This document shows, piece by piece, positions 1-50,912 of a stretch of DNA of 55,225 nucleotides. The translations under genes and the position numbers were made by a program. Origin of the DNA: a virus (taxonomy: Duplodnaviria; Caudoviricetes); IMG/VR virus record IMGVR_UViG_3300028553_000034, positions 1 to 55,225 of that record; one strand, 5' to 3'. Below the pieces are notes generated by a model that saw nothing but the letters and a program-made list of their open reading frames with translations, was not told the DNA's origin and searched no databases. The first letter of the stretch is position 1. Every line of letters begins with the position of its first letter.

Positions 1-2
1 CA

Positions 3-1283
3 CATAAATTTATGGATTCTTTCGGTAATTGGAAGAAGTCTCATGATCTTGAAGCAGGCGATCTAATAAAAGGAATCTCTGGAAATCAAATGATAACTTC
101 TATTAAAGCAATCGGTTTTGGTGAAGTTATGATTATAGAAATTGGAGATGCTCATACATACGTATCAAATGGATTAATTTCACATAATAAAACTAAACAA
201 GGAAATGAAGGTGCTGCTATCGGTGGTGGTTTAGGGAGTGCAATTAAAGCTGTTTCGTGGATCACACAAAAACCTCCAGGTTCTCCTCCAGGAGCATTTA
301 CGGATAAGACAAATAATAACGGTGGATCTGGTAATGATCCTTATGCTAATAAAAACGTTGTTTATGGTCCTCTTGATGTTATTAAGACAATGATGATGAG
401 AGATAAAGGACTTCTTTTTGAACAAGAATTTACTCTTAAATTTGAATATGAACTTCGATCTATAGACGGAATAAATCCAAAAGTAGCTATGATCGATTTA
501 CTTTCCAACGTCTTTGTTATGACGGCTAATAGAGGTGAATTTTGGGGTGGAGATATACGTCACTTCGGTGGAGGTGGTGGAGCAGGGGAATCCTCTAAAA
601 CTGTTGGACCTTTGGGTGATCCAGCTAAATTAATGGCTGGTGATTATATGGGTTATTTCAAATCTCTAACAGATAATATAGGAACCCGAATTAAAGAATT
701 CACGGGAGGTGAAGGTCTTACTCTAGAAGGAATTGCTAATGCTGCTAAAGGTATAGGCGGAAACATGATGTCTAATATCATGGGTGGTGCTATGGATGGT
801 GCTCAAGGAGGTGGAGGAGCTGCAGGTGCTCAGGCAGTAAATTCATTACTTACAGGTGAAGAAACCGGTGAATGGCACGTTATGGTTGGTAATCCTGCAA
901 ATCCTATAGTTTCTATTGGAAACTTGATTCTAGAAAAATCTGAATATCATTTACATGGTGCTTTAGGTGCTGACGATTTCCCCACGAAATTAACGGTTAC
1001 TTGTACTTTAAAACCGGCTAGACCTAGAGATCGTTCAGATATGATGTCAATGTTCCATAGAGGAGGAAGAACTTACACGACATTGAGTCCAGCTGAAAAA
1101 TATCCAGGAAATAAAAAAAATAAAGGAACTAAATCAAAATTCAAAAGTAGTTCTGCTCAAGCTAAACATAAACAAGTGGATCCTAAAGATGCAGAAGAAG
1201 CAGTAAACATGTTATTAGAAAGATTTCCGAATCACAAAAACGTTCATGAATTGTTAGCTCAATCAGCTCAAGGAATTTTTTAA
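3..1283 (+). CDS. 5'-truncated baseplate/tail-associated protein (possible tube-initiator/gp48-gp54-like) containing the C-terminal part of a Hint (intein-like) domain
   Basis: The frame is open from base 3 (HKFMDSFGNWKKSHDLEAGDLI, Hint block-B-like) to HTYVSNGLISHN (blocks F/G). The downstream part is Gly-rich with a beta-rich C-terminal domain. It lies directly upstream of gp53- and gp27-like genes. The tail role is inferred from context. Confidence 0.6.
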   Translation, partial: HKFMDSFGNWKKSHDLEAGDLIKGISGNQMITSIKAIGFGEVMIIEIGDAHTYVSNGLISHNKTKQGNEGAAIGGGLGSAIKAVSWITQKPPGSPPGAFTDKTNNNGGSGNDPYANKNVVYGPLDVIKTMMMRDKGLLFEQEFTLKFEYELRSIDGINPKVAMIDLLSNVFVMTANRGEFWGGDIRHFGGGGGAGESSKTVGPLGDPAKLMAGDYMGYFKSLTDNIGTRIKEFTGGEGLTLEGIANAAKGIGGNMMSNIMGGAMDGAQGGGGAAGAQAVNSLLTGEETGEWHVMVGNPANPIVSIGNLILEKSEYHLHGALGADDFPTKLTVTCTLKPARPRDRSDMMSMFHRGGRTYTTLSPAEKYPGNKKNKGTKSKFKSSSAQAKHKQVDPKDAEEAVNMLLERFPNHKNVHELLAQSAQGIF

Positions 1284-1296
1284 TAAAATTGAAGAT

Positions 1297-1857
1297 ATGT
1301 ACTTAAAACTTATAGACTTAAAGGATGAAATGATTAGAGATGGTGTAACTATGATAGACTTTCTCGAACTTAATCTTGAAGTGAATTACATCTCGAGCGA
1401 TTTTATCATTAAGAGTGTTATCCTCTTAGAAGAAAAACACCTATGTAGACCGGATCTAATTGTATGGGAAAATTATAGAAATTTAGATTATCTAGACGCA
1501 TTTCTAAAATTCAATCAAATATCTAATCCCTTCTCGATGCAACTTTATGATGTAATAATTATTCCTAAAGAATCTACTCTACAAAAATCATATAAAAAAA
1601 TAAATAGGAATTCGAAATTAATAAGGGACACTAAAGCTCTGTTTCTAGATCCAACTAGAGCTAGTAAAAAAGATATAGAAAGAATGAAACAACTTTCTAA
1701 GCTTTCTGCTAAGAGAAAAAATGGATCAGTCGAACCAAAACCGACTAATCTTTTAAGGCCAGGAGAAGTTCCGTTTAGTACAGACGGTAACAGATTGATA
1801 TTTGCTCCTTCTGTTTCGAGTCCGAGATTTCCTACTTCTAACGATACTACACAATGA
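1297..1857 (+). CDS. Baseplate wedge protein, gp53/LysM-like
   Basis: RPDLIVWENYRNLDYLDAFLKFNQISNPFSMQLYDVIIIP matches the RPDLI...Y......LL.FN.I.NPF......I.IP signature of T4 gp53-like proteins. Confidence 0.75.
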   Translation: MYLKLIDLKDEMIRDGVTMIDFLELNLEVNYISSDFIIKSVILLEEKHLCRPDLIVWENYRNLDYLDAFLKFNQISNPFSMQLYDVIIIPKESTLQKSYKKINRNSKLIRDTKALFLDPTRASKKDIERMKQLSKLSAKRKNGSVEPKPTNLLRPGEVPFSTDGNRLIFAPSVSSPRFPTSNDTTQ

Positions 1858-3479
1858 GTACATATGAAAGATCTATAGTCTCTATAATTGAACCGAGCTT
1901 TAAATTAGGAGCAACTTCTCAAGGCAAGATAGTTTTAGACGAAATTTTTATAACAGATACAGAGTCTAAAGAAGCCAAAGACACATATCAAGGTAATATC
2001 CGTCCTTTAGATACAAAAACTTCTTCTAGAGCAGGTTCTGCTATGCCTATTATTGCGATAAATTCCTTAATCTTAGCAGAAAACGAGATCGAAGATTTCG
2101 AAATAGATTTGAGCGATTCCATTCCTAAATTATTAATGAATTTTGTCGACAAAGCTAATCACTTCTCTATTGGTGCTCCTATAGACGGAGATGTTATTTC
2201 TATTTACATTAGACCCGGAGATGCAGACAATCAAAAACCTATAAGAATAGATTTTAACATAGTAAGGATTCTAGGAGATCCTGTTAATAAGTCTTATTTT
2301 ATAGTAGGATCTATGAAAATACATAGATTCTTCTCGGAAACTTTTAAGTCATATCCAGAGAATACATCATTTGAACACCTAATGGATGTTTGTGAAGATA
2401 TCGGTCTAGGATTTGCTTCTAATGAAACATCAACTGATGATAAAATGAAAAGAATTATTCCAGCGGAAACTTATGAAACTTTTGTTAATGAAACGACTTC
2501 TTCTACATATAAAGACGAAGATTCTTTTTTTGATTGGTATTTAGATCCTTATTACTATCTTTGTTTAGTTAATGTTAATAAACAATTTTCTCTAGAAGAT
2601 AAAACTGAAGATGTTAATATATCTGATGCATTTCCTACTTCTGGTGCTCTTGCAGTAGGAGGAGACGAGAGAAATGATAAAGATGGTATTAAAGGTAGTT
2701 TAGTTCTTACTAATTTGAATAATATGGCAGGTAAAAATGTATTCATTGAGGCATATAATTTTGAAAATAATTCAGGTTCTGTTTGGTTAAATAATGGTTA
2801 TCTTCGATATGCTCAATGGTTAAATATAGAAGAAGAAGATATTGAATATCAAAAAGCATTCGTAGATCCTTTTACTACGAAAGGATCAGAAGAAAACTTT
2901 AGACTTCTAAAGGGTCGAAAGGCTGATGGTCCGCCTAATTTTCCAAAACCGCTTTACTTAAAAGAATCCAGGTATAAATGGATGGGTAAACAAGGAGGAA
3001 ACTCTTATGGCGGTAATGTTCATGATAATTATTGCTACGCTCAAGTTCTTAATCATCAAAATCTAGAAGAACTTAAGAAAACTAGATTAATTGTAGATTT
3101 AGCTGGAATGAATCATTATTTGTATAAATATCAAAGGATTCCTGTGATAATTTATGAATCTTCAGTTAATCAAAATGCTGCAAATATGCAAACTAGAGAT
3201 AAAGCTTTAGGTGAATCTGAAGGAACAAAAGATCCAAACACACAAACAGGGATGTTCGCAGGAGCTGGTAATGTATCTTCTAATGAAAAAAGTAAACCGG
3301 ATCCTACTAATGGACCTCAACCTGAAGTTCAAGATCAAATAAAAAATGAATTTTTAAGTGGTTATTATGTTATTGCTGATATGAAATTTACATACGTAAC
3401 TGGTTCTGGTGTAAAACAGAGATTAACTTTAATAAGAAGAGAATGGCCTATACCAGCTAAACATTCACAACAAGGATAA
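1854..3479 (+). CDS. Putative baseplate hub protein (gp27/late control D-like)
   Basis: 541 aa, between gp53-like and gp5-like genes. The C-terminal FLSGYYVIADMKFTY...QRLTLIRR is typical of hub proteins. ATGA overlap with the upstream gene. Confidence 0.6.
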   Translation: MSTYERSIVSIIEPSFKLGATSQGKIVLDEIFITDTESKEAKDTYQGNIRPLDTKTSSRAGSAMPIIAINSLILAENEIEDFEIDLSDSIPKLLMNFVDKANHFSIGAPIDGDVISIYIRPGDADNQKPIRIDFNIVRILGDPVNKSYFIVGSMKIHRFFSETFKSYPENTSFEHLMDVCEDIGLGFASNETSTDDKMKRIIPAETYETFVNETTSSTYKDEDSFFDWYLDPYYYLCLVNVNKQFSLEDKTEDVNISDAFPTSGALAVGGDERNDKDGIKGSLVLTNLNNMAGKNVFIEAYNFENNSGSVWLNNGYLRYAQWLNIEEEDIEYQKAFVDPFTTKGSEENFRLLKGRKADGPPNFPKPLYLKESRYKWMGKQGGNSYGGNVHDNYCYAQVLNHQNLEELKKTRLIVDLAGMNHYLYKYQRIPVIIYESSVNQNAANMQTRDKALGESEGTKDPNTQTGMFAGAGNVSSNEKSKPDPTNGPQPEVQDQIKNEFLSGYYVIADMKFTYVTGSGVKQRLTLIRREWPIPAKHSQQG

Positions 3480-3494
3480 AAATAAAGACTAAAT

Positions 3495-4988
3495 ATGCCA
3501 GCTTTTACAAGATATGCCGATCCGGCAATGAATACTTTTAAGAAGACTAATATGTATTATGAAACTGATCCTTTTTTACGATATCAAGATCCAACATATT
3601 TAGGATTCAAATTTTTCTTCTTATTTGATCAACCTGGATGTGGACTTCTATCGGAATTAGATCTGCCTAATACTGCTCTACGATATCTGATCAACAGAGG
3701 TTATAATTCAAAAGCTGAATATCTTATTAAATTCATACAGCTTTTTAAGAAAATAAATCAAAAAACACCTTGGTTTTTTCAATCAATCGAGGGATTAGAT
3801 GAAGCATGGAAACACCTTTATCAAGATCCAGCTTTCAAACCTATTCTTTCGGCTGATAGAAAAATAATCATAAATTGCTTAGATGAATCCGTTGATATGA
3901 GAATGACTGCTCTTATGGACTTATATCGAAAAGCCTGCTTTGATTGGCCAAATAGACGGGAAATTGTTCCTCTTAATCTTAGAATGTTTAAAGCTTCAGT
4001 TTATGTTTATGAAGGTAGATCATTTAATAAATGGGGGTTCCCTTTCTCTATGTCTCAATATGGTGCAGCTGCAGAAGCAATGATTCCAAATATCTTGAAG
4101 CAAGGTAAGAATGAAATGGATAAGTACTTCGGTCCAGACCCTGTGGATAATAGTGTTATAGGTAATATCATATCTGGTGCAAAAGAAGAAGGATTCAAAG
4201 GTGCATTAGGTGGATTAATGGACAAAAAATCGGATGTTATAAATGATAGTATTTCTAGAATACTTTTCAATTTTGAGTATTGTGAATTTTTACCGGATGA
4301 ATCAAACGGAACAGTAGCAAGTGTATCAAATAAAGACTTTGTACTTAAAGCTCAAAAAATAGCATTTAGTTATAGAAATGTCGGTGAAGATAACATATAC
4401 AGATTTCATCATGATAAAAAGGTTACTGACTTTATTGTTAGTTCTTTAGATGGTCTCGCTTTAGATAAGCCTAGTCTACTTCAAAATGTTCCGGATGCTG
4501 CTGGACCTTATATAAATGGTGCAATAGCTCAAGGAATGTCACAACTCCAACAAGTTCTTTCTAGCACATTAAACAATTTATTTTTAGGTAATGTATATGG
4601 ATTCAATCCTGCAGGTGCAGTATCATCATTAGTAAATGGAGGAGTTAGTGGAGCTATATCTTTAGTAAATGAAATAGGTAAAAATTCTTCAAAGGATAAT
4701 AACACTAAAGATCAAGAAAATGGATTTGCAGATAATCCTCTTACAACTTTCGAATCTTCTTCTGGTGATGGAGTAGGAAGAAATTCATCCTTACTAAACA
4801 AAAAAAATTCATCTAAAGCAACGACTCAAGGATCTTCTCCCGAAAATCCTTCATTAAGTAATAATAGTAATGAATTTGGGAAAGCTAAATTCTTTGATGA
4901 TTTCGTTCCTTCTTTGAGTAATGAAAATGATGTTGATCCTACTACAGGAAATTATGGAGAAGGTTCCGCTTCATTGAATAATGATTAA
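3495..4988 (+). CDS. Virion structural protein (possible tube-fold/baseplate protein) with a low-complexity N/S/D-rich tail
   Basis: 497-aa ORF in the baseplate operon with repeated PSLSN-like C-terminal motifs. Function is inferred from context only. Confidence 0.45.
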   Translation: MPAFTRYADPAMNTFKKTNMYYETDPFLRYQDPTYLGFKFFFLFDQPGCGLLSELDLPNTALRYLINRGYNSKAEYLIKFIQLFKKINQKTPWFFQSIEGLDEAWKHLYQDPAFKPILSADRKIIINCLDESVDMRMTALMDLYRKACFDWPNRREIVPLNLRMFKASVYVYEGRSFNKWGFPFSMSQYGAAAEAMIPNILKQGKNEMDKYFGPDPVDNSVIGNIISGAKEEGFKGALGGLMDKKSDVINDSISRILFNFEYCEFLPDESNGTVASVSNKDFVLKAQKIAFSYRNVGEDNIYRFHHDKKVTDFIVSSLDGLALDKPSLLQNVPDAAGPYINGAIAQGMSQLQQVLSSTLNNLFLGNVYGFNPAGAVSSLVNGGVSGAISLVNEIGKNSSKDNNTKDQENGFADNPLTTFESSSGDGVGRNSSLLNKKNSSKATTQGSSPENPSLSNNSNEFGKAKFFDDFVPSLSNENDVDPTTGNYGEGSASLNND

Positions 4989-4998
4989 GTAAATTACA

Positions 4999-5006
4999 TA
5001 TAAATA
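4999..5006 (+). promoter_or_regulatory. Possible late promoter, T4-type TATAAATA
   Basis: Exact T4 late consensus in the short gap before the gp5-like gene. It is very close to the ATG and the sequence is AT-rich, so this is uncertain. Confidence 0.35.
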
Positions 5007-5010
5007 GAGT

Positions 5011-5778
5011 ATGCCTTTAAAGAACTATTGGAAAGACGATTTAGATTCAACTGCCTGGTTAGGTGAAGTTGTTGATGTTGCGGACCCTCTTAAAATAGGT
5101 AGAGCTAAAGTAAAAGTCTTTGGTAAATTCGATGAAATTCCAAATGATGATATTCCGTGGGCTTATCCAGGTACAAGTAACACTGGAGGATCTGATTCAG
5201 GAGGTGGTTTCTTTTCGGTTCCTAAAGTAGGATCTATTGTTTCTATTCGATTTGATAACGGAAACATATATCATCCTGAATACTTCTTTAATCAAAAAAT
5301 ATCTGTTGAAGTTAAGGAAGAAATAGGAAACTCTTACGAAAACGCGCATATAATAGTTTATGATACCGTGACTGCCGGTGCCGTAAAAATCTTCTTTACT
5401 GAAGCTAAAGGACTTATGTTCGATTATCAACAGACACAAATCAATATAAAAAATGATAAATCTGTTCTAATTCAAACTGCTTCTGGTGATAGTAAAGTAG
5501 AGATTTTGGACGACGGAACCATGAATATCACACAAAAGAATGATATTAATATAACTACTGATAAAGCTGTAAACGTGAAAGCTAAAGATGTTATCATCGA
5601 TCATGCGAGTACTATCGAATTAGGAAAGGGAGCAACCGAGAAAGTTATTCTCGGAAATAAATTTATGACCCTATTCAATTCTCATACACATGTCGGAAAT
5701 TTAGGTGCTCCTACAAGTCCTCCAATTTCACCAATGACATCTGCAGAATTAAGTCAAATGAAAGTAGTAACTAAATAA
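5011..5778 (+). CDS. Baseplate central spike (gp5/gpV-like): OB-fold plus beta-helix with HxH apex, no lysozyme domain
   Basis: WLGEVVDVADPLKIGRAKVKVFG...IPWA...FSVPKVGSIVSIRFDNGNIYHP is the gp5 N-terminal OB-fold signature. The C-terminal HTHVGNLGAPTSPP resembles the metal-binding apex of P2 gpV-type spikes. Confidence 0.85.
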   Translation: MPLKNYWKDDLDSTAWLGEVVDVADPLKIGRAKVKVFGKFDEIPNDDIPWAYPGTSNTGGSDSGGGFFSVPKVGSIVSIRFDNGNIYHPEYFFNQKISVEVKEEIGNSYENAHIIVYDTVTAGAVKIFFTEAKGLMFDYQQTQINIKNDKSVLIQTASGDSKVEILDDGTMNITQKNDINITTDKAVNVKAKDVIIDHASTIELGKGATEKVILGNKFMTLFNSHTHVGNLGAPTSPPISPMTSAELSQMKVVTK

Positions 5779-5780
5779 AT

Positions 5781-6278
5781 ATGGCACTAATTAAATCCAC
5801 ATTAAAAACAGCATTAGAAAATACTCTAAAAACTGAATTAAAAAAAGATTCCGTAAAGACTTCCCTTCGTAAAAATCTAGACGGCGGAGCTTTATTAGGC
5901 GTTAAAACATCAGCTGTAAGTATAACAAAAGCACTTGGAAATATATCGAATGCTTCTATGGTAGTAGGTGCAGGAACCTCAGATAATGTTGCTTCTCAGG
6001 TAGTTGCTAAAGCTTTAGTTAAAAAAATAACAGCGAATGAATGGTCAAATGCTATATCAGATTCCATATGCGAATGGATGTCTTCGGATATTGCACCTAT
6101 TCTCGCAAAAGTTATTTCAGATGAAGTAGATGCTTATCTTAAAAAAGCAATTGTAAAAGTTACAATACCACCTGGACTTGTTGCTCAAGGTGCTGGTCCG
6201 GCCGCTATACCAAATGCACTACCTCTCCCTATAACAGGAGACCCGCTTAATCCTATCCTCAATGGAGGACTCTCTTAA
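5781..6278 (+). CDS. Hypothetical protein (spike-adjacent, probably virion-associated)
   Basis: 165-aa ORF starting 2 nt after the spike stop codon. Confidence 0.55.
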   Translation: MALIKSTLKTALENTLKTELKKDSVKTSLRKNLDGGALLGVKTSAVSITKALGNISNASMVVGAGTSDNVASQVVAKALVKKITANEWSNAISDSICEWMSSDIAPILAKVISDEVDAYLKKAIVKVTIPPGLVAQGAGPAAIPNALPLPITGDPLNPILNGGLS

Positions 6279-6308
6279 TAATTTAATAACCCCTTAAAAT
6301 AAAAATAA

Positions 6309-7484
6309 ATGTCAAGATTACAAAAAGAATTACGAACTGAAGGTATTCCCGGATTTGATTGGATTTCCTATGAGGCTGATTCACCAAAATTAAAACAAAA
6401 CAAATCAATCAAAAAACATTCTGGTGATAAAAGTAAAGTTTACTGTCATTTGCCATATGCACAAGATCTTTATGAGCAGTATTATGGTAAAACACTAGAT
6501 CTAAAAGAACCATTAGAAGGTTCAGTTGTTAATGGTAAAGTTCTATCGGTCGGTGAAGAATTTGCTATTATCGATGTTAATTGGAGAGAAGATGCTATGT
6601 TAGATCTTTCTAAAGAGGATCCATCTTACTTAAAATATATTCAAGAAGGATTCCCTATTGAGGTTCTTATCGAAAGAGTTTCGAAAGTTCCAACTAGACA
6701 TTCATTATCTATTCAAGCTTCATATTCTAAAAATATCCTATCTAAGAAGAAAGATGAAATTATGGCATCTGTCGGCGATCCAGTCGCTTATGCTGCTACA
6801 GTTAAAGAACTTATTCATGGAGGTTATTTCGTTGATATCGACGGAATTAGTTGCTTTATGCCAGGTTCGCTTGGTGGTATGAATAAGTTGGTTAACTTCG
6901 ATTCATTAATAGGTAAAAATATCTACGTAGTTCCAATTAATTACTCGAAAGAGAAAGATTATATTGTTGTTTCTCATAGAGATTATCTTAAAACTCTCAT
7001 CCCACAAAGCATTAAATCTTTACAGTTTGCAACTGAATACACAGGTTTTGTAACGGGAGTTAGTAAACACGGCGTCTTTGTAGAATTCAACGAATGTTTG
7101 ACTGGTCTAATTGCTAAGAAAGATATTTCTAGTGATTCAATGGATGATTTCGAAAATCGTAGAATTAAAGCTGGAGATTCGATTAAATTCTATGTTTCGG
7201 AAATCATTGATAATGATAAAATTGTTTTGAGTCAATCATTACCTGAACCACAAATCAATGCATGGGACGATATAGAAAATCGTTTTAAGATTCCATCTAT
7301 TGTAACAGGTAAAGTTAAAAGAGTTGTTCGATACGGAATCTTCGTTGAAATCGAACCAAAAATCGTAGGTCTCTTACACAAATCACATCTAGACGAAAAT
7401 GATGAATTTGAGGTAGGTCAAGAAATAGAGGTAAAAATAGTAAAAATAGACAAAGAATCTAAGAAAGTCGACTTTACTATGTAA
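6309..7484 (+). CDS. rpsA: Ribosomal protein bS1 homologue (four S1 domains)
   Basis: Four tandem S1/OB repeats in bS1 order: EGSVVNGKVLSVGEEFAIID (D1); GGYFVDIDGISCFMPGSL...IVVSHR (D2); GFVTGVSKHGVFVEF...GLI (D3); AWDDIENRF...GKVKRVVRYGIFVEIEPKIVGLLHKS (D4). Confidence 0.85.
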   Translation: MSRLQKELRTEGIPGFDWISYEADSPKLKQNKSIKKHSGDKSKVYCHLPYAQDLYEQYYGKTLDLKEPLEGSVVNGKVLSVGEEFAIIDVNWREDAMLDLSKEDPSYLKYIQEGFPIEVLIERVSKVPTRHSLSIQASYSKNILSKKKDEIMASVGDPVAYAATVKELIHGGYFVDIDGISCFMPGSLGGMNKLVNFDSLIGKNIYVVPINYSKEKDYIVVSHRDYLKTLIPQSIKSLQFATEYTGFVTGVSKHGVFVEFNECLTGLIAKKDISSDSMDDFENRRIKAGDSIKFYVSEIIDNDKIVLSQSLPEPQINAWDDIENRFKIPSIVTGKVKRVVRYGIFVEIEPKIVGLLHKSHLDENDEFEVGQEIEVKIVKIDKESKKVDFTM

Positions 7485-7491
7485 TTAACTT

Positions 7492-7501
7492 GAATATATA
7501 G
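7492..7501 (+). promoter_or_regulatory. Putative late-type promoter motif GAATATATAG
   Basis: Intergenic copy of a (G)ATA[TAC]ATA motif that recurs before structural and small genes (also 22250, 27012, 33884, 34980, 42093, 43556). Resembles the T4 late promoter TATAAATA. Confidence 0.5.
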
Positions 7502-7517
7502 AAAAAAGAAGGTTACA

Positions 7518-8885
7518 TTGAAATTCGATAGTCTATCATATTCCCCATTATTTGAAAACACTTTAGTGAGAATCATATCGGAATTTAATTCTGATATGAC
7601 TCCTTCTAATGTATTAAAGGGGTTATCCAAAGCATTGAAACGAAAAGTTTCAACCGATGTACCTGGATCTTATAATGCTAACATAAGTCGAGGAGATGAT
7701 GGAGTTTATCGTTTGGAAACTACATTCCTCACGTACAGAGATTCTAGACTTATTTGTCTTAATCTTTTTTCGTGGATTGAAAGAAATGGATTCACAGAAA
7801 AAAATAATAACTTCTTTGTTGATATTAAATTTATCGATAAAGAAGCAGGACCATTCAAAGGAACTCTATTTTTCAAGGGAATCTCTGTTGAAAAAATTGA
7901 TAAACTAAAATTCATTCTAGAATTTAATGAAGATGCTGTTTATAAAGCATTTCCATCTAGAAAATATGGATTCAATACTAAGAGTATTCAGAAATTTGAT
8001 ATTAATCAAAGATTTGTTCCTAAAGAAGAATCTGTAGTAGATCCTAAATTTTATTCGGTTCCAGATACAAAAGAATGTGGAGTAAATTTCGAACTTTTAA
8101 CAGAAGGATTCCTTAGACTTCAATATATAGGAGGTAAGGAATATGAAAAGAAACCTACTGAAATACTCGACATAATTAGTGAATTTTGTGTTGTTTCGTG
8201 GAATTCTACATTTAGATCTCAATACACAAAAGAAAATATCCTAAATTTTGAAAAACTTATTTTGAAACAAAATAAAATAAGAGAATCCTATTTAGATTAC
8301 GCTGTATTCAAACAAAAATTTCCAAAAGTTAATTTCACAGTAGATTTATTAGAAAATCCAAAAACTCTAGATTATTATTATTCTGTTCTTAGGGATAGGA
8401 TCTATGATTTCTTAATTTCAGCAAAATTCAAGGATAATGAATTAGAAATGAATTATGATACGACGCTTTCAGCTTTACAAATAAGAGATGGTGAGATTAA
8501 ATCTACAGGAACTATCAAAGATATTGAATTTGTAAATTGTAAGATTCAATATGGTAATTTTCAAAATTGTGTTTTTTATGATTGTGAAATTACTGATTGT
8601 CGATTAATAGAATGTAACATTTATTTAGATTCTGTGGTTAATAGATGTTTACTAATCAATTCCATGGCAAATAGAACAATTGTGTTAAATAATACAGATG
8701 TTGATGGTATGAATTCTGTATTGAATGCTAAAATGAACGGTGGAGTTTTTTATAAAGGTAAACTAGGAATCTTTGCTGAAATAAGTAAAAATACTACAGT
8801 TATTCAATATGAAAGATTAAAACCTGGGTATTTTGTTGCTGGTGATACTGTAATAATTCCTACGAAAAAATATATTAAGCCATGA
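7518..8885 (+). CDS. Degenerate amidoligase (COOH-NH2 ligase)-like domain fused to a C-terminal pentapeptide/beta-helix-like repeat
   Basis: The motif order ISEF...RLET...WIERNG...VDIKF...KECGVNF...LRLQYIGG parallels phage amidoligase motifs. The C-terminus has Cys-rich repeats (FVNCKI/FQNCVF/YDCEI/TDCRL/IECNI). TTG start. Confidence 0.5.
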   Translation: MKFDSLSYSPLFENTLVRIISEFNSDMTPSNVLKGLSKALKRKVSTDVPGSYNANISRGDDGVYRLETTFLTYRDSRLICLNLFSWIERNGFTEKNNNFFVDIKFIDKEAGPFKGTLFFKGISVEKIDKLKFILEFNEDAVYKAFPSRKYGFNTKSIQKFDINQRFVPKEESVVDPKFYSVPDTKECGVNFELLTEGFLRLQYIGGKEYEKKPTEILDIISEFCVVSWNSTFRSQYTKENILNFEKLILKQNKIRESYLDYAVFKQKFPKVNFTVDLLENPKTLDYYYSVLRDRIYDFLISAKFKDNELEMNYDTTLSALQIRDGEIKSTGTIKDIEFVNCKIQYGNFQNCVFYDCEITDCRLIECNIYLDSVVNRCLLINSMANRTIVLNNTDVDGMNSVLNAKMNGGVFYKGKLGIFAEISKNTTVIQYERLKPGYFVAGDTVIIPTKKYIKP

Positions 8886-9667
8886 GTTTTGAATATGATA
8901 AATGTGAAAATGGTCAACCCTATACAACTGACGAATTTATCGCTTTAGTACAACAGGAAATATCTGTTGCTTGTGCATTGCCATTTACTGTTCCTGTTAA
9001 AGAGATTGAGAGAATTATTAAATTTTCTTCTGAATGGTTCTATAAAAAATACGAAGATGCCGTGGAAGAGAGATTTGTTATTATTCCAAAAACAATGTTT
9101 CAATCCGATGAATTTAAGAAGAGTCGAACAGTTACTGTTCCGGAATGTGTATTTTCTATTTTTGCTGTTAAAAAAATGAGAGAAGATTTCGGTAGAACTT
9201 ACTCTTTCGATGGTACAGGTGACTTTGGTGTTGAACGTTTATTTCTATCTGATTCAGTTTCTATCGGACAGGGAACAGAAAACATGATGTATTATGTACT
9301 TAATTTATCTTGGTTAGATTTAGCGAATCACATAATCAATCACACTGTAAGTTATAATTATAATCGTAATTCTCATAAGTTATTCTTTTCAGGAGAAACT
9401 CCTGATAGAGATTGTGTTTGTCAAGCATATATAAAACTTCCATTTGAATTTCTTTTTGCTGATGAGATATTCTATCGATATGTTGTTGCTAAATGTAAGG
9501 TGCAACTTTCAAGAATTCTAGGTACATTTGCTTTTAATTTACCTGGAAATATAACAATTAATTATGATTTGATTCGAACTGAAGGAACTGATGAGATAAC
9601 AAAAATAGAAGAAGAAATTAAAGCTGACGAAGGAATGGATTTCTTCTTTACATCAGGGGGATCATAG
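8882..9667 (+). CDS. Neck/head-completion protein, gp13-like
   Basis: C-terminal KVQLSRILGTFAFNLPGNITINYDLIRTEGTDEITKIEEEI matches the T4 gp13 family (LPGGVTING..I..EA..EI..LEEE). Size is appropriate. Confidence 0.75.
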   Translation: MSFEYDKCENGQPYTTDEFIALVQQEISVACALPFTVPVKEIERIIKFSSEWFYKKYEDAVEERFVIIPKTMFQSDEFKKSRTVTVPECVFSIFAVKKMREDFGRTYSFDGTGDFGVERLFLSDSVSIGQGTENMMYYVLNLSWLDLANHIINHTVSYNYNRNSHKLFFSGETPDRDCVCQAYIKLPFEFLFADEIFYRYVVAKCKVQLSRILGTFAFNLPGNITINYDLIRTEGTDEITKIEEEIKADEGMDFFFTSGGS

Positions 9668-9735
9668 ATTTGATCAAGAGTAACATTAAGATGACCTCTA
9701 GTGAACTAAAATAATAAAATAATAATATACTATAT

Positions 9736-10134
9736 ATGGCTTTGGATATCTATTTGAGACTGCCACAAGACCCAAATTACAATGCTAATTTTCTAGAAGT
9801 AGAAGATGACATTAGTAATTTTGTTCAAATGATAGAAATGTGTTTGACTACAATCCCTGGAGAAGTTCTAGGCGAGCCTGAATTAGGATGTAATCTTGAA
9901 GGATATCTATGGAATCCATATATAACAGTAGGAACAATAAAAAACGACATAATGTCACAGGTTAGAAGATTTTGCACTAATAGTCAACTTGCTATTCCTT
10001 TCAATGTAAATGTCAATTTCATCAGGGGGGATATCTCTGATTCGATTTTAGTTGACATAGAAGTTGATGGGAGGTCAGTTTTAGGAATTGCCGCATCCCC
10101 TAATCCTGATTCACAAATATCACTTAATGTATAA
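9736..10134 (+). CDS. Baseplate wedge subunit, gp25-like
   Basis: IEMCLTTIPGEVLGEPELGCNLEGYLW is the gp25/GPW signature (T..GE...P.FG.....LF). Lies directly before the gp6-like gene. Confidence 0.85.
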   Translation: MALDIYLRLPQDPNYNANFLEVEDDISNFVQMIEMCLTTIPGEVLGEPELGCNLEGYLWNPYITVGTIKNDIMSQVRRFCTNSQLAIPFNVNVNFIRGDISDSILVDIEVDGRSVLGIAASPNPDSQISLNV

Positions 10135-10136
10135 AG

Positions 10137-11903
10137 ATGAGCAATAACATTCTAAGACCCAATAAACTTAAATTCGGAGAGATATTTCTACAAATAAAAA
10201 ATTATCTTGTAGAAACCTATAATCAAACTGGGGATATATTCTCAGCAGCTTCTCCATATGGACAAATTTTAGTAGTAATGCAAAATTTCGTTCAGTTAAT
10301 TTTCCTCTATTTAGAAGATTCATTAGTCGAATTAAATATCTACACTGCAACAAAAAGGCGATCTATATATGGATTTGCTAGACTTGCAGGACATAACCCA
10401 ACTAGATCTATTTCTGCTGAAGGAACTATAAATGTAAAATGGAAACCTTCAATATCCGAAGTTAATTTCTCTTATGCTACCATACCTGACAAAACTGTAA
10501 TAATTTGTGATTATAATGGCCTTCCTTATATTATTAGGATTTCTAATGATATGGATAATATAAAGATAAAAAAATCAGAAAGGTCTTTCATTCCTCTAAA
10601 AATTATTCAGGGATCTTTGGAACAACAAACAAAGACAGGAACAGGATTAGAACTTCAATCTTTCAGTATTTTAGCAAAGAAAGAAATTGATAATGAAAAT
10701 ATAAAAATAACTGTAAACGGCGACCCATATGAAATAGTCGATTCACTTTATGATATGACTAAAGGCAGTAAACAATGTATGGTTAAAACTGGACTGACTG
10801 ATGGTATCGATATTTATTTTGGAAATCGAGATTTTGGAACTATTCCTAATAGAGGTGCTAATATAACAGTGGAATACATAACAACGGACGGATTTGGTGG
10901 TAACGTATTCGGTAAAACTGATGATATTACATGGAAATGGGCAGATCCTTTATACACAAATACAGGTGAAGAATTAGATCCAAATGAATACATTAACATT
11001 ACTATAAACAAAACAATAGTTCTTGGAGCAGATGCTGAATCCCCTGAATTAACTAAGCTAATAGCTCCTAAAACAAGTAGATCTTTTGTTTTAGCTAATC
11101 CAGAAAATTATGTAAATTTCTTTTCGAGATTCAATTACTCGTATGTTGATGCTTATACAACCTATGATGATGAATATATCGATGATGATAACGTTATCTA
11201 TCTTTTTTTAATTCCAAACATCGAAAAAAGACTCCAAAAAAATTCAGATTATTTTACAACAAATCTTATTAATTTCTATCTAGATGAAGATGAAAAAGCT
11301 GCACTTTATAGATATATTAATTCTTCAGGCCAACAAATCATATCTTCTGAGCTATCAATAATAAATCCCATTCTTACTAAATATGTTATGAATGTTTTTC
11401 TTAGAATTTATGATACTTCCAATCCTGTTTCCGTATCAAACGAAGTTACAACTCAAATAACAGATTATCTTCTAAGAGTAAAAAGAAGAGATAAAATTCC
11501 AAAATCGGATTTGATAGCAATTTTAGAAAACATAAAAGGAATCGATTCTGTTAATCTTTCTTTTATCTCAGAAGTTAATGAGAAGGCTATAATCGATGGA
11601 TATTACTTCAAAAAAATAGAAAGTTTCGATGGAGTAAGAGGAATAAAAACTGTACAGGAAGTAAAAGTTTTAGTTCCTACCAATACCGATCCTAATATCG
11701 GATTAGATGATTTTGGCGATATTGTTATAGGTAAAAATGAAATGCCAGTTATGAGAGGGGGTTGGTATGATCGATTCGGTAATTATTTTGAAGATGGATT
11801 AAGCGATTCAACTTATTCATCAGTGAATATAATTGTTAAAGAAGTCATAAAAGAGACAATAGCTATTAAACAAATGAATGCAAATAAAACAGCACTTAAA
11901 TAA
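10137..11903 (+). CDS. Baseplate wedge subunit, gp6-like
   Basis: ELNIYTATKRRSIYGFARLAGHNPTRSISA, IYFGNRDFGTIP, YITTDG and GADAES are gp6/baseplate J-like motifs. Confidence 0.85.
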   Translation: MSNNILRPNKLKFGEIFLQIKNYLVETYNQTGDIFSAASPYGQILVVMQNFVQLIFLYLEDSLVELNIYTATKRRSIYGFARLAGHNPTRSISAEGTINVKWKPSISEVNFSYATIPDKTVIICDYNGLPYIIRISNDMDNIKIKKSERSFIPLKIIQGSLEQQTKTGTGLELQSFSILAKKEIDNENIKITVNGDPYEIVDSLYDMTKGSKQCMVKTGLTDGIDIYFGNRDFGTIPNRGANITVEYITTDGFGGNVFGKTDDITWKWADPLYTNTGEELDPNEYINITINKTIVLGADAESPELTKLIAPKTSRSFVLANPENYVNFFSRFNYSYVDAYTTYDDEYIDDDNVIYLFLIPNIEKRLQKNSDYFTTNLINFYLDEDEKAALYRYINSSGQQIISSELSIINPILTKYVMNVFLRIYDTSNPVSVSNEVTTQITDYLLRVKRRDKIPKSDLIAILENIKGIDSVNLSFISEVNEKAIIDGYYFKKIESFDGVRGIKTVQEVKVLVPTNTDPNIGLDDFGDIVIGKNEMPVMRGGWYDRFGNYFEDGLSDSTYSSVNIIVKEVIKETIAIKQMNANKTALK

Positions 11904-12151
11904 TGTATAAAGATTCAGTATACACAAAAATATATCAATCTAACGATAAGATAAAAGATACGGGTTATGATTATAGATCTGAAGGGATGATTAATAAATT
12001 CTTTTCAAATCGAATGTTTGGTAATCCTGGAATGGATGGATTTCTTAATAGAATCGAGCCTTATTTTATTGAAATGACAGATTCAGTTAAAGCTATTCAA
12101 TTTTATAACAATTACACACTAGATAAAAACGACGGAAGCATAAATCTATAA
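11903..12151 (+). CDS. Small hypothetical baseplate-region protein
   Basis: 82-aa ORF translationally coupled (TAATG) to the gp6-like gene. Confidence 0.6.
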   Translation: MYKDSVYTKIYQSNDKIKDTGYDYRSEGMINKFFSNRMFGNPGMDGFLNRIEPYFIEMTDSVKAIQFYNNYTLDKNDGSINL

Positions 12152-12152
12152 A

Positions 12153-15100
12153 ATGTACAAATATCTAAACTTTTTCAATAAAAAAGGTGAATACTGCAAT
12201 TTCGAATACCTTGAAGCAAGTGATAAATGGGTTGGTCGTATAGATTTCAATACCGTATCAGAAGGTCTTATTGAAGATTTCCAATTGTATATCATGGAAG
12301 AGGTGTATAATTCTTCTTCGCAATCTTATGAGTATGTATATCCTATAGGATCTACTTCACTCCCTAGCAACGGAGCTACTGCTTATTTTACATCTACAAA
12401 TCCTATAACAGAAATGTTCCTTTATGATTTTGATTTAGGTGCAACTGCAAATACTTTGACTAAGTCGTATTCTATGGAATATAATTTCGATTCTGTTGCG
12501 TATTCGATAGGAACTACAGGAGTTAAAGATGGAATAAAAGAGGTAACAACTATTAATTCAGTTCCAATTCAAGTAAATCTTGGATTTTCTCCAATGACTG
12601 AAAGGGGTTATAGTTCAGTTGTTTTTATCAAAGACGCAGATGATAATATATTTGCTGAAATTCTTTTATATGGCGAAGGTGAAGAAGAAGATCAACGTTT
12701 AAGAGATTGGTTAGCTGCTTTAGGAGGAGATCTTTTACCACAAGATGAATCGATTTTTGATGAATCGGATGTTAATGAAATAAAAACGAATTGGTCTTTA
12801 TTCAATAAGAAGAGAAAGGAAATGTTACTTGAGTATTCTAACATATATCCTTACTTAGGATCTTATAAAGCTCTCATAAATATCATTAAATTCTTCGGTT
12901 ATCAAAATCTAAGAATGAAAGAATACTGGTTAAATGTTGATTCTGAAAGTGTTTATTTCGGTAAATTCAAACAAATGAACATATCCGATGTTTTTACTAA
13001 AGATGCAAATTTCAATAATACGTCTCTCATTCCGAGTAAAATTTATAAGAAAACTAATAAATTCGGTCTTTATTATGACATAACAATAGAATCAGGAGAT
13101 TATGATGATGATGGAATTCCTATAGTCGAAGAAGTTTTTTCATACACACCTCAAGAAATTTTGATTAAAATCTTCGCATTAAAGAAAAAACTTCAAAATT
13201 ATTTCTTGCCTGTAAATGCTAAAATTGTTGATATTATAGGTGAAGCAGTTTACTTTGCTAAATACGATACAAATGTATGGAACGATCAATATAGAATTGA
13301 TAAAATCGAATTGGGACTTAAGCCTTCATTCGAAGTTCTTCCTTCACCTTCCGGATTCTTACAAGATCTAAGATACTTAAATTTCTTCGGATGTCCAGTA
13401 GGTCCAGACCTAACAATAGGAGGCCAAACAAACATTCTTTCCTGGTATGTAACACTTAATCCTAATGGGATTAATGTAGGTGGAATGCCTACACCTTTAG
13501 ATACAGTTCAAACTTTTAGATTTGTTTTTTATATTCCTACAGGAACAACTGCAACAGTAGATACGGTAATTGAAAGAGATCCAAATACAGGGAAATACAT
13601 ATATACTGATTCAGAAGTAGCAGATTTGATTATTAAATCTCTTAGGGATGATTCATATGTTGGATCTAATTTTACGATATATCAAGAAGGAGGTGATTCA
13701 GGAACTATTAGAATTGTACAAAAAGAAGCAATAGGTGATGGATCAATTTATGTTACTTGGATGAGTAATACTTCAGGATCTTTCCCACAGGCAACTATAC
13801 AATATACAGTTCCGACAATATCAGGTGGTGGAGGAACCGCAGCCTCTATAAACGTTTCGACTGGACCTTCAGGCTCTTTTGGAGCCTCAGGTGCACCTAT
13901 AAGTTATTTTGCTGATTGTTTCTTAGGTTATTTTGATAAAGCAAATATACCAATAAGACAATTAAACGACGACGAAGATATTCCAATTGGATATCCAATC
14001 ACACTTAACAATAAAACTTTCGATATTAATTGGGATGATGCTAATGTAACCTTCAATCAAATCGATCTAGTTGGACCCACTAGTGGAACTCTATATGGAT
14101 CTTTTAATTTATCTCAAACTATCTCAGGTTGGACGTCATCTCCAGGATCAACGAGTAATCCTATATACGTCGGAGCAACAGGCTTTCCTACTTTGTTTCC
14201 CTCCCAATTCAATTACAGTTGGCAAAGCCTTGGTTATTATGGATATTACGAAATGCAATGGATTATAACTAAGGTTGCTGATGATACTCCTGCTTTCTCT
14301 TTTGATAGTGGAAAAATTGGAATAGAAGATGGAGATAATTATCCTGTGATCCTCCCTTATGTAGGATTCTATAAAGTAGAACTTTACATGTGGGATAGTT
14401 ATAATACGAAATCTTTCTTAATTAATGAAGATATGATTGAAGTTAAAATGAAAGAATCTGACTTTATCGGATGGTATCAATTCAGAGAACTCGATTATAA
14501 ATTAAACACAAGAAAATACGATGTACAGTTAGATTTTATTCCGCCCCCTCCATTGAATGGAATAACACCTCTTAAACCTCTATTAACTTGGGACGAATAT
14601 GCATCTACTTGGGATCTTCCTTTACACCCAAATGAATCAATTGATATGGCAGATATGAGTTATAATTCTCTAGACTCATCTGAATTTTACAAAACAATCA
14701 CGGATCCTTCAAACAATCCTCTAGTTGATAGATTCCCTTACACATATAATTTGATGAGTCTTCTTCCAAAATGGGATGATCTTTATCATCTTTGGTGGGA
14801 TGGAATAGGAACTAAAATAACTCAATGGGAAATTAAGAATGTAACAGGTCCTACTGCTCATATATTTATGACTAAAGGAAATACAATTCTAGATGTTAAT
14901 TCTATCGATGTTCATTATGAACAAGGACCCACTGGTTATACAGGAGCTACAGGAGCTACAGGATCTACTGGATCTACTGGGGATATTATTGTTTCTAATG
15001 CAAATAGAAGAACATATCAATATGACGGAACAAATTGGGTCTACATAATCGATGTTGTTGATTCTTATGAGATAACAGGACTTATAGGATCTACTGCGGA

Positions 15101-15968
15101 TAATATGTTATCAATAGTAAAGGAACTTAATCAAATAATGCCTTTTGATGGAATAAATCATCCTTTCTTAAATGATTTCATCTATTATTACAATGAAGAT
15201 TATGATAGCAACTATCAATTAATTCCTTATATTCGATCAGTTTCTAAAGACTTCGATCGAGGAGGAAGACACAAAATTAAATTGGATGGTGCAACAGGAG
15301 ATAATAAATCGTATGAGACTGTTTATTTTGGATATGTCGGTGATATCCCTACACATTTTGAAATTTATAAGATTGAGTCTCTAGGACCGACAGGTAGCAT
15401 ATTAATAAATGGAATGAGTTCTCCTTATTTAATTGGATCAACTTCTTTAATGGATTTAGCTGATGAACTTAACGGACCTACTGCTCAAGGAGTAGATGGA
15501 ATAAATAATTTTCAATACAACCTTGTTCTAGGATATTCAGGAGCTACAGGACCTACAACTTCCTCTATAACTCCTAGCGAGATAAAAATTCAAGCTATCT
15601 CAAAAGCATTTACTAGTCCAAGTGAAACAACAGTTGAATTTGTAGATATTATTGGAACTTCGTATGGTAGATCAATAATTAAAAATCCAACATGGGATGA
15701 AGTAAGAATTCTTAAATATGCACAAAATTTACCTCTATGTACAGTGGTTAATTTCACATATGATAACTCTGTAATAAACGGAAAGAAGAATCCTAAATGG
15801 AAACTTACAAAAGAAGGAGATTCGAACTTCACGGATATATACTACAATAATAAGTATTTCTCCTATATGTTCAACGAAAAGGGTAGTTACACCGTTTCAC
15901 TTGAGCTAGAAGATACAAACGGTAATAAGAAATCAGTAACAAAAAAAGAAATAATAAAAATAATTTAA
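12153..15968 (+). CDS. Large baseplate wedge protein (gp7-like region) with Ig/PKD-like domains
   Basis: YLGSYKALINIIKFFGY resembles the gp7/tail protein I KGT..AI...L...G motif. GFYKVELY and GSYTVSLELEDTNGN are PKD-like ends. Follows gp6. Confidence 0.6.
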   Translation: MYKYLNFFNKKGEYCNFEYLEASDKWVGRIDFNTVSEGLIEDFQLYIMEEVYNSSSQSYEYVYPIGSTSLPSNGATAYFTSTNPITEMFLYDFDLGATANTLTKSYSMEYNFDSVAYSIGTTGVKDGIKEVTTINSVPIQVNLGFSPMTERGYSSVVFIKDADDNIFAEILLYGEGEEEDQRLRDWLAALGGDLLPQDESIFDESDVNEIKTNWSLFNKKRKEMLLEYSNIYPYLGSYKALINIIKFFGYQNLRMKEYWLNVDSESVYFGKFKQMNISDVFTKDANFNNTSLIPSKIYKKTNKFGLYYDITIESGDYDDDGIPIVEEVFSYTPQEILIKIFALKKKLQNYFLPVNAKIVDIIGEAVYFAKYDTNVWNDQYRIDKIELGLKPSFEVLPSPSGFLQDLRYLNFFGCPVGPDLTIGGQTNILSWYVTLNPNGINVGGMPTPLDTVQTFRFVFYIPTGTTATVDTVIERDPNTGKYIYTDSEVADLIIKSLRDDSYVGSNFTIYQEGGDSGTIRIVQKEAIGDGSIYVTWMSNTSGSFPQATIQYTVPTISGGGGTAASINVSTGPSGSFGASGAPISYFADCFLGYFDKANIPIRQLNDDEDIPIGYPITLNNKTFDINWDDANVTFNQIDLVGPTSGTLYGSFNLSQTISGWTSSPGSTSNPIYVGATGFPTLFPSQFNYSWQSLGYYGYYEMQWIITKVADDTPAFSFDSGKIGIEDGDNYPVILPYVGFYKVELYMWDSYNTKSFLINEDMIEVKMKESDFIGWYQFRELDYKLNTRKYDVQLDFIPPPPLNGITPLKPLLTWDEYASTWDLPLHPNESIDMADMSYNSLDSSEFYKTITDPSNNPLVDRFPYTYNLMSLLPKWDDLYHLWWDGIGTKITQWEIKNVTGPTAHIFMTKGNTILDVNSIDVHYEQGPTGYTGATGATGSTGSTGDIIVSNANRRTYQYDGTNWVYIIDVVDSYEITGLIGSTADNMLSIVKELNQIMPFDGINHPFLNDFIYYYNEDYDSNYQLIPYIRSVSKDFDRGGRHKIKLDGATGDNKSYETVYFGYVGDIPTHFEIYKIESLGPTGSILINGMSSPYLIGSTSLMDLADELNGPTAQGVDGINNFQYNLVLGYSGATGPTTSSITPSEIKIQAISKAFTSPSETTVEFVDIIGTSYGRSIIKNPTWDEVRILKYAQNLPLCTVVNFTYDNSVINGKKNPKWKLTKEGDSNFTDIYYNNKYFSYMFNEKGSYTVSLELEDTNGNKKSVTKKEIIKII

Positions 15969-15969
15969 C

Positions 15970-16539
15970 ATGGCAATCACAACAACAACATTGAACGGAA
16001 CAGATTCAGTATCGGCTTCAAGGATTACCCTTAATGACAACTTTAATACAATTAAGGAGGCATTAAACGATGTATTGAGCATTATTGACATTGCAACAGG
16101 AAAAATAAATAACTACGGATACGGGAGTAATAATGATATGGAAACTGAAGATCTTATTGTTAGAGGATCTGTTAGTGGTGGTATTAATGTTATATCTGGG
16201 AATGTAGCTGTAGGTGCAGGAAATGTCGTTATAGGTGCAAACAATTATCTACAAATTGGTGCAGGGACTAATTCTATTTATTTTGAAAAATTAACTAAAA
16301 CCTATGCAGTTTCTGGATCTATTCCAACTATCAACTTTTCCGGTAGTGGAGTTACAGGACCAACTGCTTCAGGACCTGTTGGTTATATGACATTACCTAG
16401 AATGACTACTGCGGATATTAATTCTATCGTAAGTCCTCTTGAAGGATCTATCGTATACGATTTAACATTAAATGCTTTTGTAGGATGTACTGGATCTAGT
16501 GCAACTGCTGGTGGTAGTAACTGGGCAATTTTATCATAA
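15970..16539 (+). CDS. Virion structural protein (short fibre-like)
   Basis: N-terminal DSVSASRITLNDNF (fibre anchor-like) and C-terminal LPRMTT...GSIVYD, a motif often seen in fibre proteins. Confidence 0.55.
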   Translation: MAITTTTLNGTDSVSASRITLNDNFNTIKEALNDVLSIIDIATGKINNYGYGSNNDMETEDLIVRGSVSGGINVISGNVAVGAGNVVIGANNYLQIGAGTNSIYFEKLTKTYAVSGSIPTINFSGSGVTGPTASGPVGYMTLPRMTTADINSIVSPLEGSIVYDLTLNAFVGCTGSSATAGGSNWAILS

Positions 16540-16555
16540 AAATAAAAATAATTGA

Positions 16556-18625: not shown

Positions 18626-18626
18626 C

Positions 18627-50896: not shown

Positions 50897-50912
50897 ACAT
50901 ATAAAAATAAAA

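Follow-up and report, generated by a model that had tools for sequence, protein, structure and literature searches.

Huge phages encode a protein that Al-Shayeb et al. (Nature, 2020) termed a "possible rpS1"; in the excerpted text of that paper, such phages rarely have Shine-Dalgarno (SD) sequences, a role of the protein in translation initiation is proposed, and a true rpS1 is said to be hard to confirm (PMC7162821). Mizuno et al. 2019 left S1 aside as ambiguous (PMC6375957). In excerpts of a 2026 paper, the bS1 of the jumbo cyanophage PhiMa05 is read as a replacement of its host counterpart and is reported to have been taken recently from a Vampirovibrio-like host, with five other ribosomal protein genes (PMC13157829). 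The cellular protein is best described in two bacteria. Excerpts of a 2026 study of Flavobacterium johnsoniae state that Bacteroidia ribosomes ignore SD sequences and need bS1 and upstream adenines; in the 30S subunit's structure, determined by cryo-EM, a helix-loop-helix made up of bS1 residues 4-40 binds stably to uS2 and uS8, with FLANFNWHNF in the helix that lies at uS8 (PMC13000457). For Escherichia coli, excerpts of an earlier structural paper give Phe5, Phe9, Asp39 and Lys43 as the S1 contacts to S2, and His15, Phe16, His18, Phe32, Asn203-Asp205 and Arg208 as the contact residues on uS2 (PMC4288201). Here we analyze a bS1 homologue encoded in the IMG/VR virus record IMGVR_UViG_3300028553_000034, a stretch of 55,225 bases that we analyzed at its full length and refer to as the window.

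The window is the complete record, with an estimated completeness of 19%. Near-complete relatives of this phage measure 246-294 kb, identifying the window as a fragment of a T4-like jumbo phage. Like the "possible rpS1" of huge phages, the window protein contains multiple S1 domains and belongs to an SD-poor genome; its likeness to the PhiMa05 protein was judged from the published description of the latter. Both the phage S1 genes and the translation hypothesis were already published in 2020 for huge phages. New here are the correspondence of an N-terminal helix (helix 1) with the helix that cryo-EM shows in contact with uS8, the class-level distribution of that helix, a domain-wise test of homology, an approximately unbiased (AU) test of tree topology and a passing model of the complex with uS2. 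The window is of incremental value, contributing a further well-conserved member whose conserved N-terminal motif is tied to the uS8 contact in a solved structure. We consider the chances somewhat better than even that the gene encodes a phage-adapted, shortened bS1 that docks on the host 30S subunit and sustains or biases initiation on phage mRNAs.

A shortened bS1 homologue

The 391-residue protein is a shortened bS1 homologue and not a generic S1-domain protein. It was matched by 24 NCBIfam families, the best 11 of which are bS1 models, and residues 55-389 were spanned only by bS1 models. The rpsA model TIGR00717 aligned query residues 55-389 with model positions 3-340 of 516 (E 8.9e-47); as the alignment ends at position 340, the last two of the six cellular S1 domains (D1-D6), D5 and D6, are missing. 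The Pfam S1 family (PF00575) matched three stretches of the protein (E 6.9e-33), and because these were the only three PF00575 matches in the whole 55-kb record, all of them within the S1 open reading frame (ORF), further S1 domains are not encoded nearby. The top sequence match in the PDB was 9zcd_A, a 591-residue bS1 (E 1.6e-30), and HMMER placed E. coli bS1 residues 6-343 collinear with query residues 56-388 (PDB 6h4n_y and others).

Structure prediction gave the same picture. AlphaFold2 (AF2) run on the single sequence produced a model with a pLDDT of 34, which was not usable, and a model built on a 117-sequence family alignment (pLDDT 79.9) was used instead. This model contains N-terminal helices at residues 18-23 and 51-59 and four barrels at residues 73-138, 161-222, 243-308 and 330-390. 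Its top Foldseek matches were ribosome-bound bS1 chains, the first being 9gut_B (E 5.9e-24). The four barrels and the end point of the TIGR00717 alignment bear out a preliminary description of this gene, made from the letters alone, as a four-domain S1 ORF that lacks D5-D6.

The same description had assigned the domains to bS1 D1-D4 in order, and here the outcome was divided. The phage domains were used one at a time as queries against 63 cellular bS1 proteins of six domains. Domain 1 gave a match in 62 of these targets, the best being cellular D1 in 60, and domain 2 found D2 in 63/63, which makes the ribosome-binding half of the protein specifically bS1-like. Domain 3 was most similar to cellular D5 (54 targets) or D4 (9 targets) and in 0 cases to D3, and domain 4 was most similar to D4 (49), D5 (13) or D3 (1). 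The order therefore stands for D1 and D2, whereas "D3-D4" is a positional label and not one of likeness. Within the 117-member family, the majority fraction was 0.65 for domain 1, 0.85 for domain 2, 0.71 for domain 3 and 0.83 for domain 4, which puts domains 2 and 4 ahead of the others in conservation.

Anchor helices and the predicted contacts to uS8 and uS2

The N-terminus of the phage protein carries a short aromatic helix, helix 1, that the preliminary description had likened to the N-terminal motif of Bacteroidota bS1, F[DN]W..[YF]E. The resemblance proved sound, with FDWISYE at residues 16-22 and the F[DN]W core in 25/32 of the Bacteroidia-class bS1 proteins sampled and in 0/42 others, and the core also occurs in 90/117 members of the phage family. 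The 42 comprise 30 bS1 proteins of other classes in the same phylum (the 30 that scored best on a model favouring classes other than Bacteroidia, the Bacteroidia figure coming from a separate class-level sample) and 12 Clostridia-like bS1 proteins (IspH-S1 fusions), with 0/30 and 0/12 positive, respectively; the class name Bacteroidia rests on the title (Flavobacteriaceae) of the metagenome-assembled genome (MAG) at the centre of the class sample. Within the phage family, W18 is conserved in 117/117 members, D17 in 111/117, F16 in 91/117 and an aromatic residue or His at position 21 in 114/117. In the alignment, GFDWISYE of the window protein is paired with NFDWDAFE, with which a 597-residue cellular-type bS1 (MT835643.1) begins, with DFDWEAYE and FDWEAYE in members of the window's clade, and with SFDWSPYD and SFNWTPYE in Lak phages. 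Given the match to the F. johnsoniae uS8 helix and the class distribution, the phage motif is the counterpart of a structurally defined, Bacteroidia-specific ribosome contact.

Helix 1 is followed by a loop with a median length of 20 residues in the phage family (K+R 34%, D+E 9%) and then by helix 2, in which Q52 and Y55 are invariant, Y58 is found in 114/117 and G60 in 115/117 members. A second conserved patch lies in the D1 loop, where W92, E94 and D95 are invariant, R93 is conserved in 116/117 and D89 in 90/117. In the HMMER alignment, which begins at helix 2, E. coli Phe5, Asp39 and Lys43 align to Y55, D89 and R93. The phage protein thus resembles E. coli bS1 in having an aromatic residue where E. 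coli has Phe5, an acidic one in place of Asp39 and a basic one in place of Lys43, and in its collinear alignment. It differs in that E. coli bS1 lacks helix 1 and the uS8 contact, and in that Phe9 aligns to the variable Y59, while the conserved phage aromatic is Y58.

The preliminary description had named uS2 as the partner for structure prediction. We modelled the complex of F. johnsoniae uS2 (Swiss-Prot RS2_FLAJ1) with phage residues 1-150, using the family alignment. Three runs gave ipSAE values of 0.74, 0.74 and 0.73, compared with 0.00 for the best of three controls; 58/80 solved complexes and 2/110 mismatched pairs reached this mark in the calibration, which is a rough guide only, as a custom alignment was used. 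The three runs had at least 66% of contacts in common, with a partner pLDDT of at least 75. The predicted interface comprises phage residues 26-28, 41-46, 50-65, 79-97 and 133-134 and uS2 residues 7-19, 26-45, 75-79 and 204-209. In their numbering, these uS2 positions agree with the E. coli contact residues, a match that is indicative only since the two uS2 proteins were not aligned, and the model suggests docking through the same surfaces as those of E. coli S1. Helix 1 falls outside the modelled uS2 interface, as expected if it is bound to uS8.

Compared with the bS1 of Bacteroidia, the phage protein shares the helix-loop-helix that excerpts of the F. johnsoniae study describe (PMC13000457), its first helix carrying F[DN]W..[YF] and its second a Tyr, as well as bS1-type D1 and D2, canonical S1 RNA-binding domains and SD-less, A-rich leaders. 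It departs from these proteins in its size (391 residues and four domains, versus six domains in open frames of ~590-690 residues), in the ~20-residue lysine-rich loop between the helices, in its very long tree branch and in a score far below the NCBIfam cut-off. Its identity to the MT835643.1 bS1 is ~25%.

Relatives and origin of the phage S1 proteins

The nearest named relatives of the window S1 are those of LR756500, at 43.5% identity, and of LR745206 and LR756501/2/4, at 29-34%. To place them, we computed a quick IQ-TREE phylogeny (LG+C20+F+G4) of the D1-D4 region (82 rows, 328 columns). The 82 rows remained from 104 after removal of seven in which the top HMMER domain lay out of register (L029, L038, L080, L081, L082, L086 and L119) and of every second one of 30 other-class rows (15). 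All 25 phage-type proteins fell on one side of a branch with an SH-aLRT support of 100: 14 from the window's clade, LR756500, four phages of >600 kb, Lak and five MAG-binned contigs. The 32 Bacteroidia rows formed one clade with a support of 99. The huge-phage rpS1 proteins are thus all in one tree group with the window protein, phage-type lengths being 357-391 residues; the window's clade belongs to T4-like jumbo phages with relatives of 246-294 kb, as opposed to phages of >460 kb.

The position of the phage group relative to cellular bS1 is less clear-cut, as long branches meet where the two join, a point on which the program issued a warning. In the AU test, a clade of phage and Bacteroidia proteins was not rejected (p 0.612), and this topology surpassed the quick free tree by 5.47 lnL units. 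With the phage proteins forming a long-branched, separate group and with this AU result, the S1 barrels cannot name the donor. The N-terminal motif, a feature of the sequence outside the barrels, points to Bacteroidia. In the comparison with host bS1 that the preliminary description had proposed, nesting inside the host proteins was not recovered, and a position as sister to Bacteroidia is compatible with the data.

The S1 proteins of the Lak megaphages (Prevotella phages Lak-A/B/C, MK2500xx), whose hosts are members of the Bacteroidia according to the records, resemble the window protein in N-terminal architecture: they lie in the same tree group and share the FDW/FNW helix, the lysine-rich loop and helix 2. 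They differ from the window protein, to which they are 27-28% identical, in having 369 residues, with three S1 domains and, after them, an acidic tail rich in alanine. The Lak S1 gene lies at 7959-9068 in Lak-B2 (L029) and at 7941-9050 in Lak-C1 (L030), and in Lak-C1 a tRNA-His guanylyltransferase gene follows within ~600 bases downstream, in contrast with the structural neighbours in the window.

We found no close relatives in 185,579 species genomes, in pattern-limited scans, besides five MAG contigs. These came from a genome-contig scan with the family alignment, which used a single phage-type pattern; in the scan with the window protein alone, 0/64 pattern matches were related. The five contigs (L031-L035) are labelled Flavobacteriaceae, Flavobacteriales, uncultured bacterium, Candidatus Muiribacterium and Clostridium sp., and their S1 proteins fall inside the phage group, with L035 ("Clostridium") close to Lak-C1 and L032 close to LR745206. 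They probably represent phage DNA that ended up in bacterial bins, and the bin names are therefore weak evidence for a host. The same "uncultured bacterium" MAG that holds L033 also holds L038 (G003:C13), a 358-residue frame on rpsA model positions 19-342, which would be a short cellular S1 or a second one of phage type.

Two records filed under phage names showed a different pattern. The 597-residue bS1 of MT835643.1 (L028), filed as an unverified "Bacteriophage sp.", groups inside Bacteroidia, and a contig of "Acinetobacter phage MD-2021a" (CAKLQH020000011.1, L118) carries a cellular-type rpsA with cmk and himD on its two sides. Both records resemble DNA of a bacterial chromosome.

Proposed role in translation and genomic setting

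The leaders of the phage genes had been described as A-rich and SD-less, and the counts agree. The SD cores GGAG, GAGG or AGGA occur at positions -20 to -4 of 2/43 genes, compared with 11.4% of random 17-mers. Across the 43 gene leaders, A reaches 58-67% at positions -10 to -14, versus 36.6% overall, and G is depleted. This pattern is the initiation context that excerpts of the F. johnsoniae study describe for Bacteroidia (PMC13000457).

Evidence on expression came from environmental RNA libraries. Between 5% and 17% of the sampled words of the locus were present in 23 metatranscriptome runs from 20 studies with freshwater, lake or sediment labels. In 4/4 runs checked, from four studies, the S1 gene was covered by contigs that are 90-99% alike, and contigs bridging the S1 junctions were found (X1 record 3, 6273-7800; X2 record 11, 5865-7141); the parts of 4500-9700 that lack contig cover in these four libraries are uninformative. 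The contigs hint that S1 is transcribed in freshwater relatives. Late expression would follow from the place of the gene in the structural module, the single clue to its timing. The T4 late-promoter consensus word TATAAATA gave 13 matches versus 12.0 expected, which is no signal. Sigma-70-type promoters within 4500-10500 (23 versus 30.8 expected) and terminator-like sites (5 versus 2.1 expected, two of them within the S1 coding sequence) were uninformative for timing.

In the mechanism that we favour, the N-terminal helix-loop-helix and domains 1-2 would dock on the host 30S subunit where bS1 normally sits, with helix 1 (FDW..Y) reaching uS8 and with Y55/Y58 of helix 2 and R93-E94-D95 of the D1 loop reaching uS2, while the two canonical S1 domains would grip single-stranded, A-rich mRNA leaders. 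The host would probably be a freshwater member of the class Bacteroidia, with ribosomes that ignore SD sequences and rely on bS1 for SD-less initiation. Made along with the tail and neck proteins, the phage S1 may supplement host bS1 or compete with it, and initiation on phage mRNAs would thereby be sustained or biased. Docking of the phage S1 on the ribosome is well supported in silico, by sequence conservation and by the modelled complex; actual 30S binding, its timing, the competition with host bS1 and the selectivity for mRNAs are inferred. With both host-specific anchors present, the phage bS1 is a concrete candidate for reprogramming the ribosome, and one that can be cloned. For F. johnsoniae, a system for in vitro initiation assays and cryo-EM has been published (PMC13000457) that would suit direct testing of the phage S1, and we found no bench test of a phage S1 in the limited collection of literature searched.

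Several observations weigh against this explanation. The TIGR00717 score is 159.8 bits against a curated cut-off of 577, and no bS1 model reached its cut-off. Only two RNA-binding domains are left in the phage protein, where cellular bS1 has three or four among D3-D6, and domain 3 has Ala at the position of the near-invariant His357 of domain 4. The phage group lies ~2.5 changes per site from all 57 cellular bS1 proteins, and function may have drifted over that distance. The FDW helix present in the window S1 is lacking in LR756500 and in the four >600-kb phages. As E. coli S1-S2 complexes have been solved, the passing uS2 model may reflect memory and speaks for likeness, not binding. The contigs from RNA libraries are no proof of transcription, since they may derive from DNA and give no strand, ends or level. 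Finally, according to excerpts of PMC4288201, domains 1-2 of host S1 have non-ribosomal partners as well, such as Q-beta replicase, bound through the same residues that touch S2.

This last point also supports the strongest rival, in which the phage S1 acts off the ribosome, free in the cytoplasm, where it would chaperone RNA, protect mRNA or assist a phage enzyme as cofactor, its N-terminal half binding a phage partner in the manner of host S1 in Q-beta replicase or with T4 RegB. Host bS1 is involved in T4 RegB activation and in lambda beta function, in the excerpted text of PMC13157829, and the strong divergence of the phage group from cellular bS1 would fit such a change of role. We nonetheless regard it as unlikely. 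The Bacteroidia-specific, uS8-touching helix has been kept, with W18 in every family member; the uS2-type surface is invariant and was modelled on uS2 with all controls at 0.00; and PHROG scans found no candidate partner enzyme in the window.

A competitive blocker would use the same docking evidence as the favoured explanation to a different end, displacing full-length host bS1 from its site and shutting down host translation rather than recruiting phage mRNAs. The loss of two of the four cellular RNA-binding domains would suit such a protein, and in E. coli, fragments from the N-terminal part of S1 have a dominant-negative effect. Conservation is, however, high in domains 3 and 4 (0.71 and 0.83, versus 0.65 for domain 1), which argues that RNA binding is under selection, and the phage genes themselves share the A-rich leaders without SD sequences that in Bacteroidia require bS1, so that a pure blocker would harm the phage too. 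We rate this possibility as low, a step below the off-ribosome role.

The explanation that we favour, a bS1 acting on host ribosomes, also has a more far-reaching form, which we put forward tentatively and rather doubt in its entirety. The protein would be a purpose-built mini-bS1 for Bacteroidia ribosomes, with a two-point anchor formed by the uS8 and uS2 helices and a lysine-rich loop that adds rRNA contacts, and it would out-compete loosely bound host bS1 late and re-tune ribosomes to phage leaders. All phage S1 proteins (T4-like jumbo, Lak and >600-kb) would then stem from one ancient capture of a Bacteroidia bS1 that afterwards moved between unrelated huge-phage lineages, some of which shed the uS8 helix.

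The S1 gene lies, as the preliminary description had it, between the spike and neck genes (Table 1), and this address is maintained in related phages. The order S1, ORF 7518, adaptor, ORF 9736 and wedge is kept in 22/22 related viral loci, across which S1 identity is 47-95%, and the hub gene is found upstream of S1 in 20/20 related loci long enough to show it. LR756500 (462 kb) has hub, S1, ORF 7518 and adaptor in the same order. In the related loci, S1 is about as conserved as the adjoining structural genes. In Lak and the four >600-kb phages, tblastn found none of the window's neighbour genes next to S1. That S1 is instead a virion or assembly protein, its S1/OB barrels recruited as a structural or packaged component of baseplate and neck and possibly delivered with the DNA, is very improbable: the fixed address in all 22 loci and LR756500, the strand shared with adjoining genes across gaps of 30 and 33 nt, and the OB folds common in hub proteins (PF04717 in the neighbour) would fit it, but the collinear bS1 homology reaches the ribosome anchor, the Lak-C1 homologue adjoins a tRNA-His guanylyltransferase gene and not structural genes, and no PHROG structural family matches the S1 protein.

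Table 1. Positions of the S1 gene, its parts and other features of the window
Feature	Positions	Strand	Remarks
Phage bS1 homologue gene	6309-7484	+	ATG start, 391 aa; stop codon included
Helix 1, residues 16-23 (FDWISYEA)	6354-6377	+	Bacteroidia-type aromatic helix; family alignment, AF2
Lysine-rich loop between anchor helices, residues 25-43	6381-6437	+	Longer than in the L028 bS1
V-Y/F strand and helix 2, residues 44-65 (Q52, Y55, Y58, G60)	6438-6503	+	Counterpart of the S2-binding N-terminal helix of E. coli S1
Domain 1, residues 70-140	6516-6728	+	Degenerate S1 barrel with loop W92-R93-E94-D95; AF2, domain search
Domain 2, residues 158-225	6780-6983	+	bS1-D2 type block CFMPGSLGG; most conserved domain
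Domain 3, residues 240-310	7026-7238	+	Canonical S1 RNA-binding barrel; Pfam, AF2
Domain 4, residues 328-391	7290-7481	+	Canonical S1 RNA-binding barrel; best Pfam S1 match, 59.8 bits
Leader of the S1 gene	6279-6308	+	30-nt intergenic, A-rich, without SD motif; too short for its own promoter
gp5-type baseplate hub/spike with OB domain, upstream	5011-5778	+	PHROG 37871 (1.7e-17), PHROG 430 (2.7e-15), Pfam PF04717 (Phage_base_V)
Small ORF directly upstream of S1	5781-6278	+	No PHROG or Pfam family match; poorly conserved, detected in 4/22 related loci
ORF 7518, downstream neighbour	7518-8885	+	No function assigned; syntenic in all related loci
Head-tail adaptor (neck)	8882-9667	+	PHROG 211 (1.9e-12)
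Baseplate wedge subunit (ORF 9736)	9736-10134	+	
Baseplate wedge, gp6-like	10137-11903	+	PHROG 219 (6.8e-29)
Tail-fibre-like protein	27090-30254	+	
Tube-like protein	33317-33883	+	

The base composition of the S1 gene (GC 32.7%, GC at third codon positions, GC3, 21.4%) is close to the phage mean (32.6% and 19.3%). A recent horizontal capture of the gene was considered and discounted, given this match and the long tree branch.

All 44 ORFs taken as genes in the window lie on the + strand. In PHROG and Pfam scans, positions 1-34,000 encode tail, baseplate and fibre proteins, and 34,000-55,000 encode T4-like replication proteins, among them a RuvC-like resolvase, a gp32-like single-stranded DNA-binding protein, primase, helicase, dUTPase, ribonucleotide reductase and a family-B DNA polymerase. 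A tRNA scan of the window found no tRNA genes, a megablast search of window positions 1-20000 against phages returned no matches, and bS21 (PF01165) was found in 0/5 long relatives, LR756500 included.

The family-B DNA polymerase is split over two ORFs ~3.9 kb apart. The first (46408-47787) corresponds to the N-terminal part (PHROG 2062/262, profile positions 101-488) and the second (51664-52851) to the C-terminal part (PHROG 1918/262, profile positions 498-838). Between them lie the genes for the small and large subunits of ribonucleotide reductase and an ORF at 50868-51662 without assigned function.

A further observation concerns the tail region, where positions 18627-22250 encode a 1207-residue protein of phrog_29329 (E 1.1e-156), a family of unknown function. 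In a PHROG scan of the S1 surroundings, this was the only family that the 635-kb phage LR745206 shared with the window; its homologue there (L024 34-2727, E 9.1e-88) lies ~5 kb upstream of S1. Judging from these profile matches, the phrog_29329 protein may be a structural protein common to very different huge phages.

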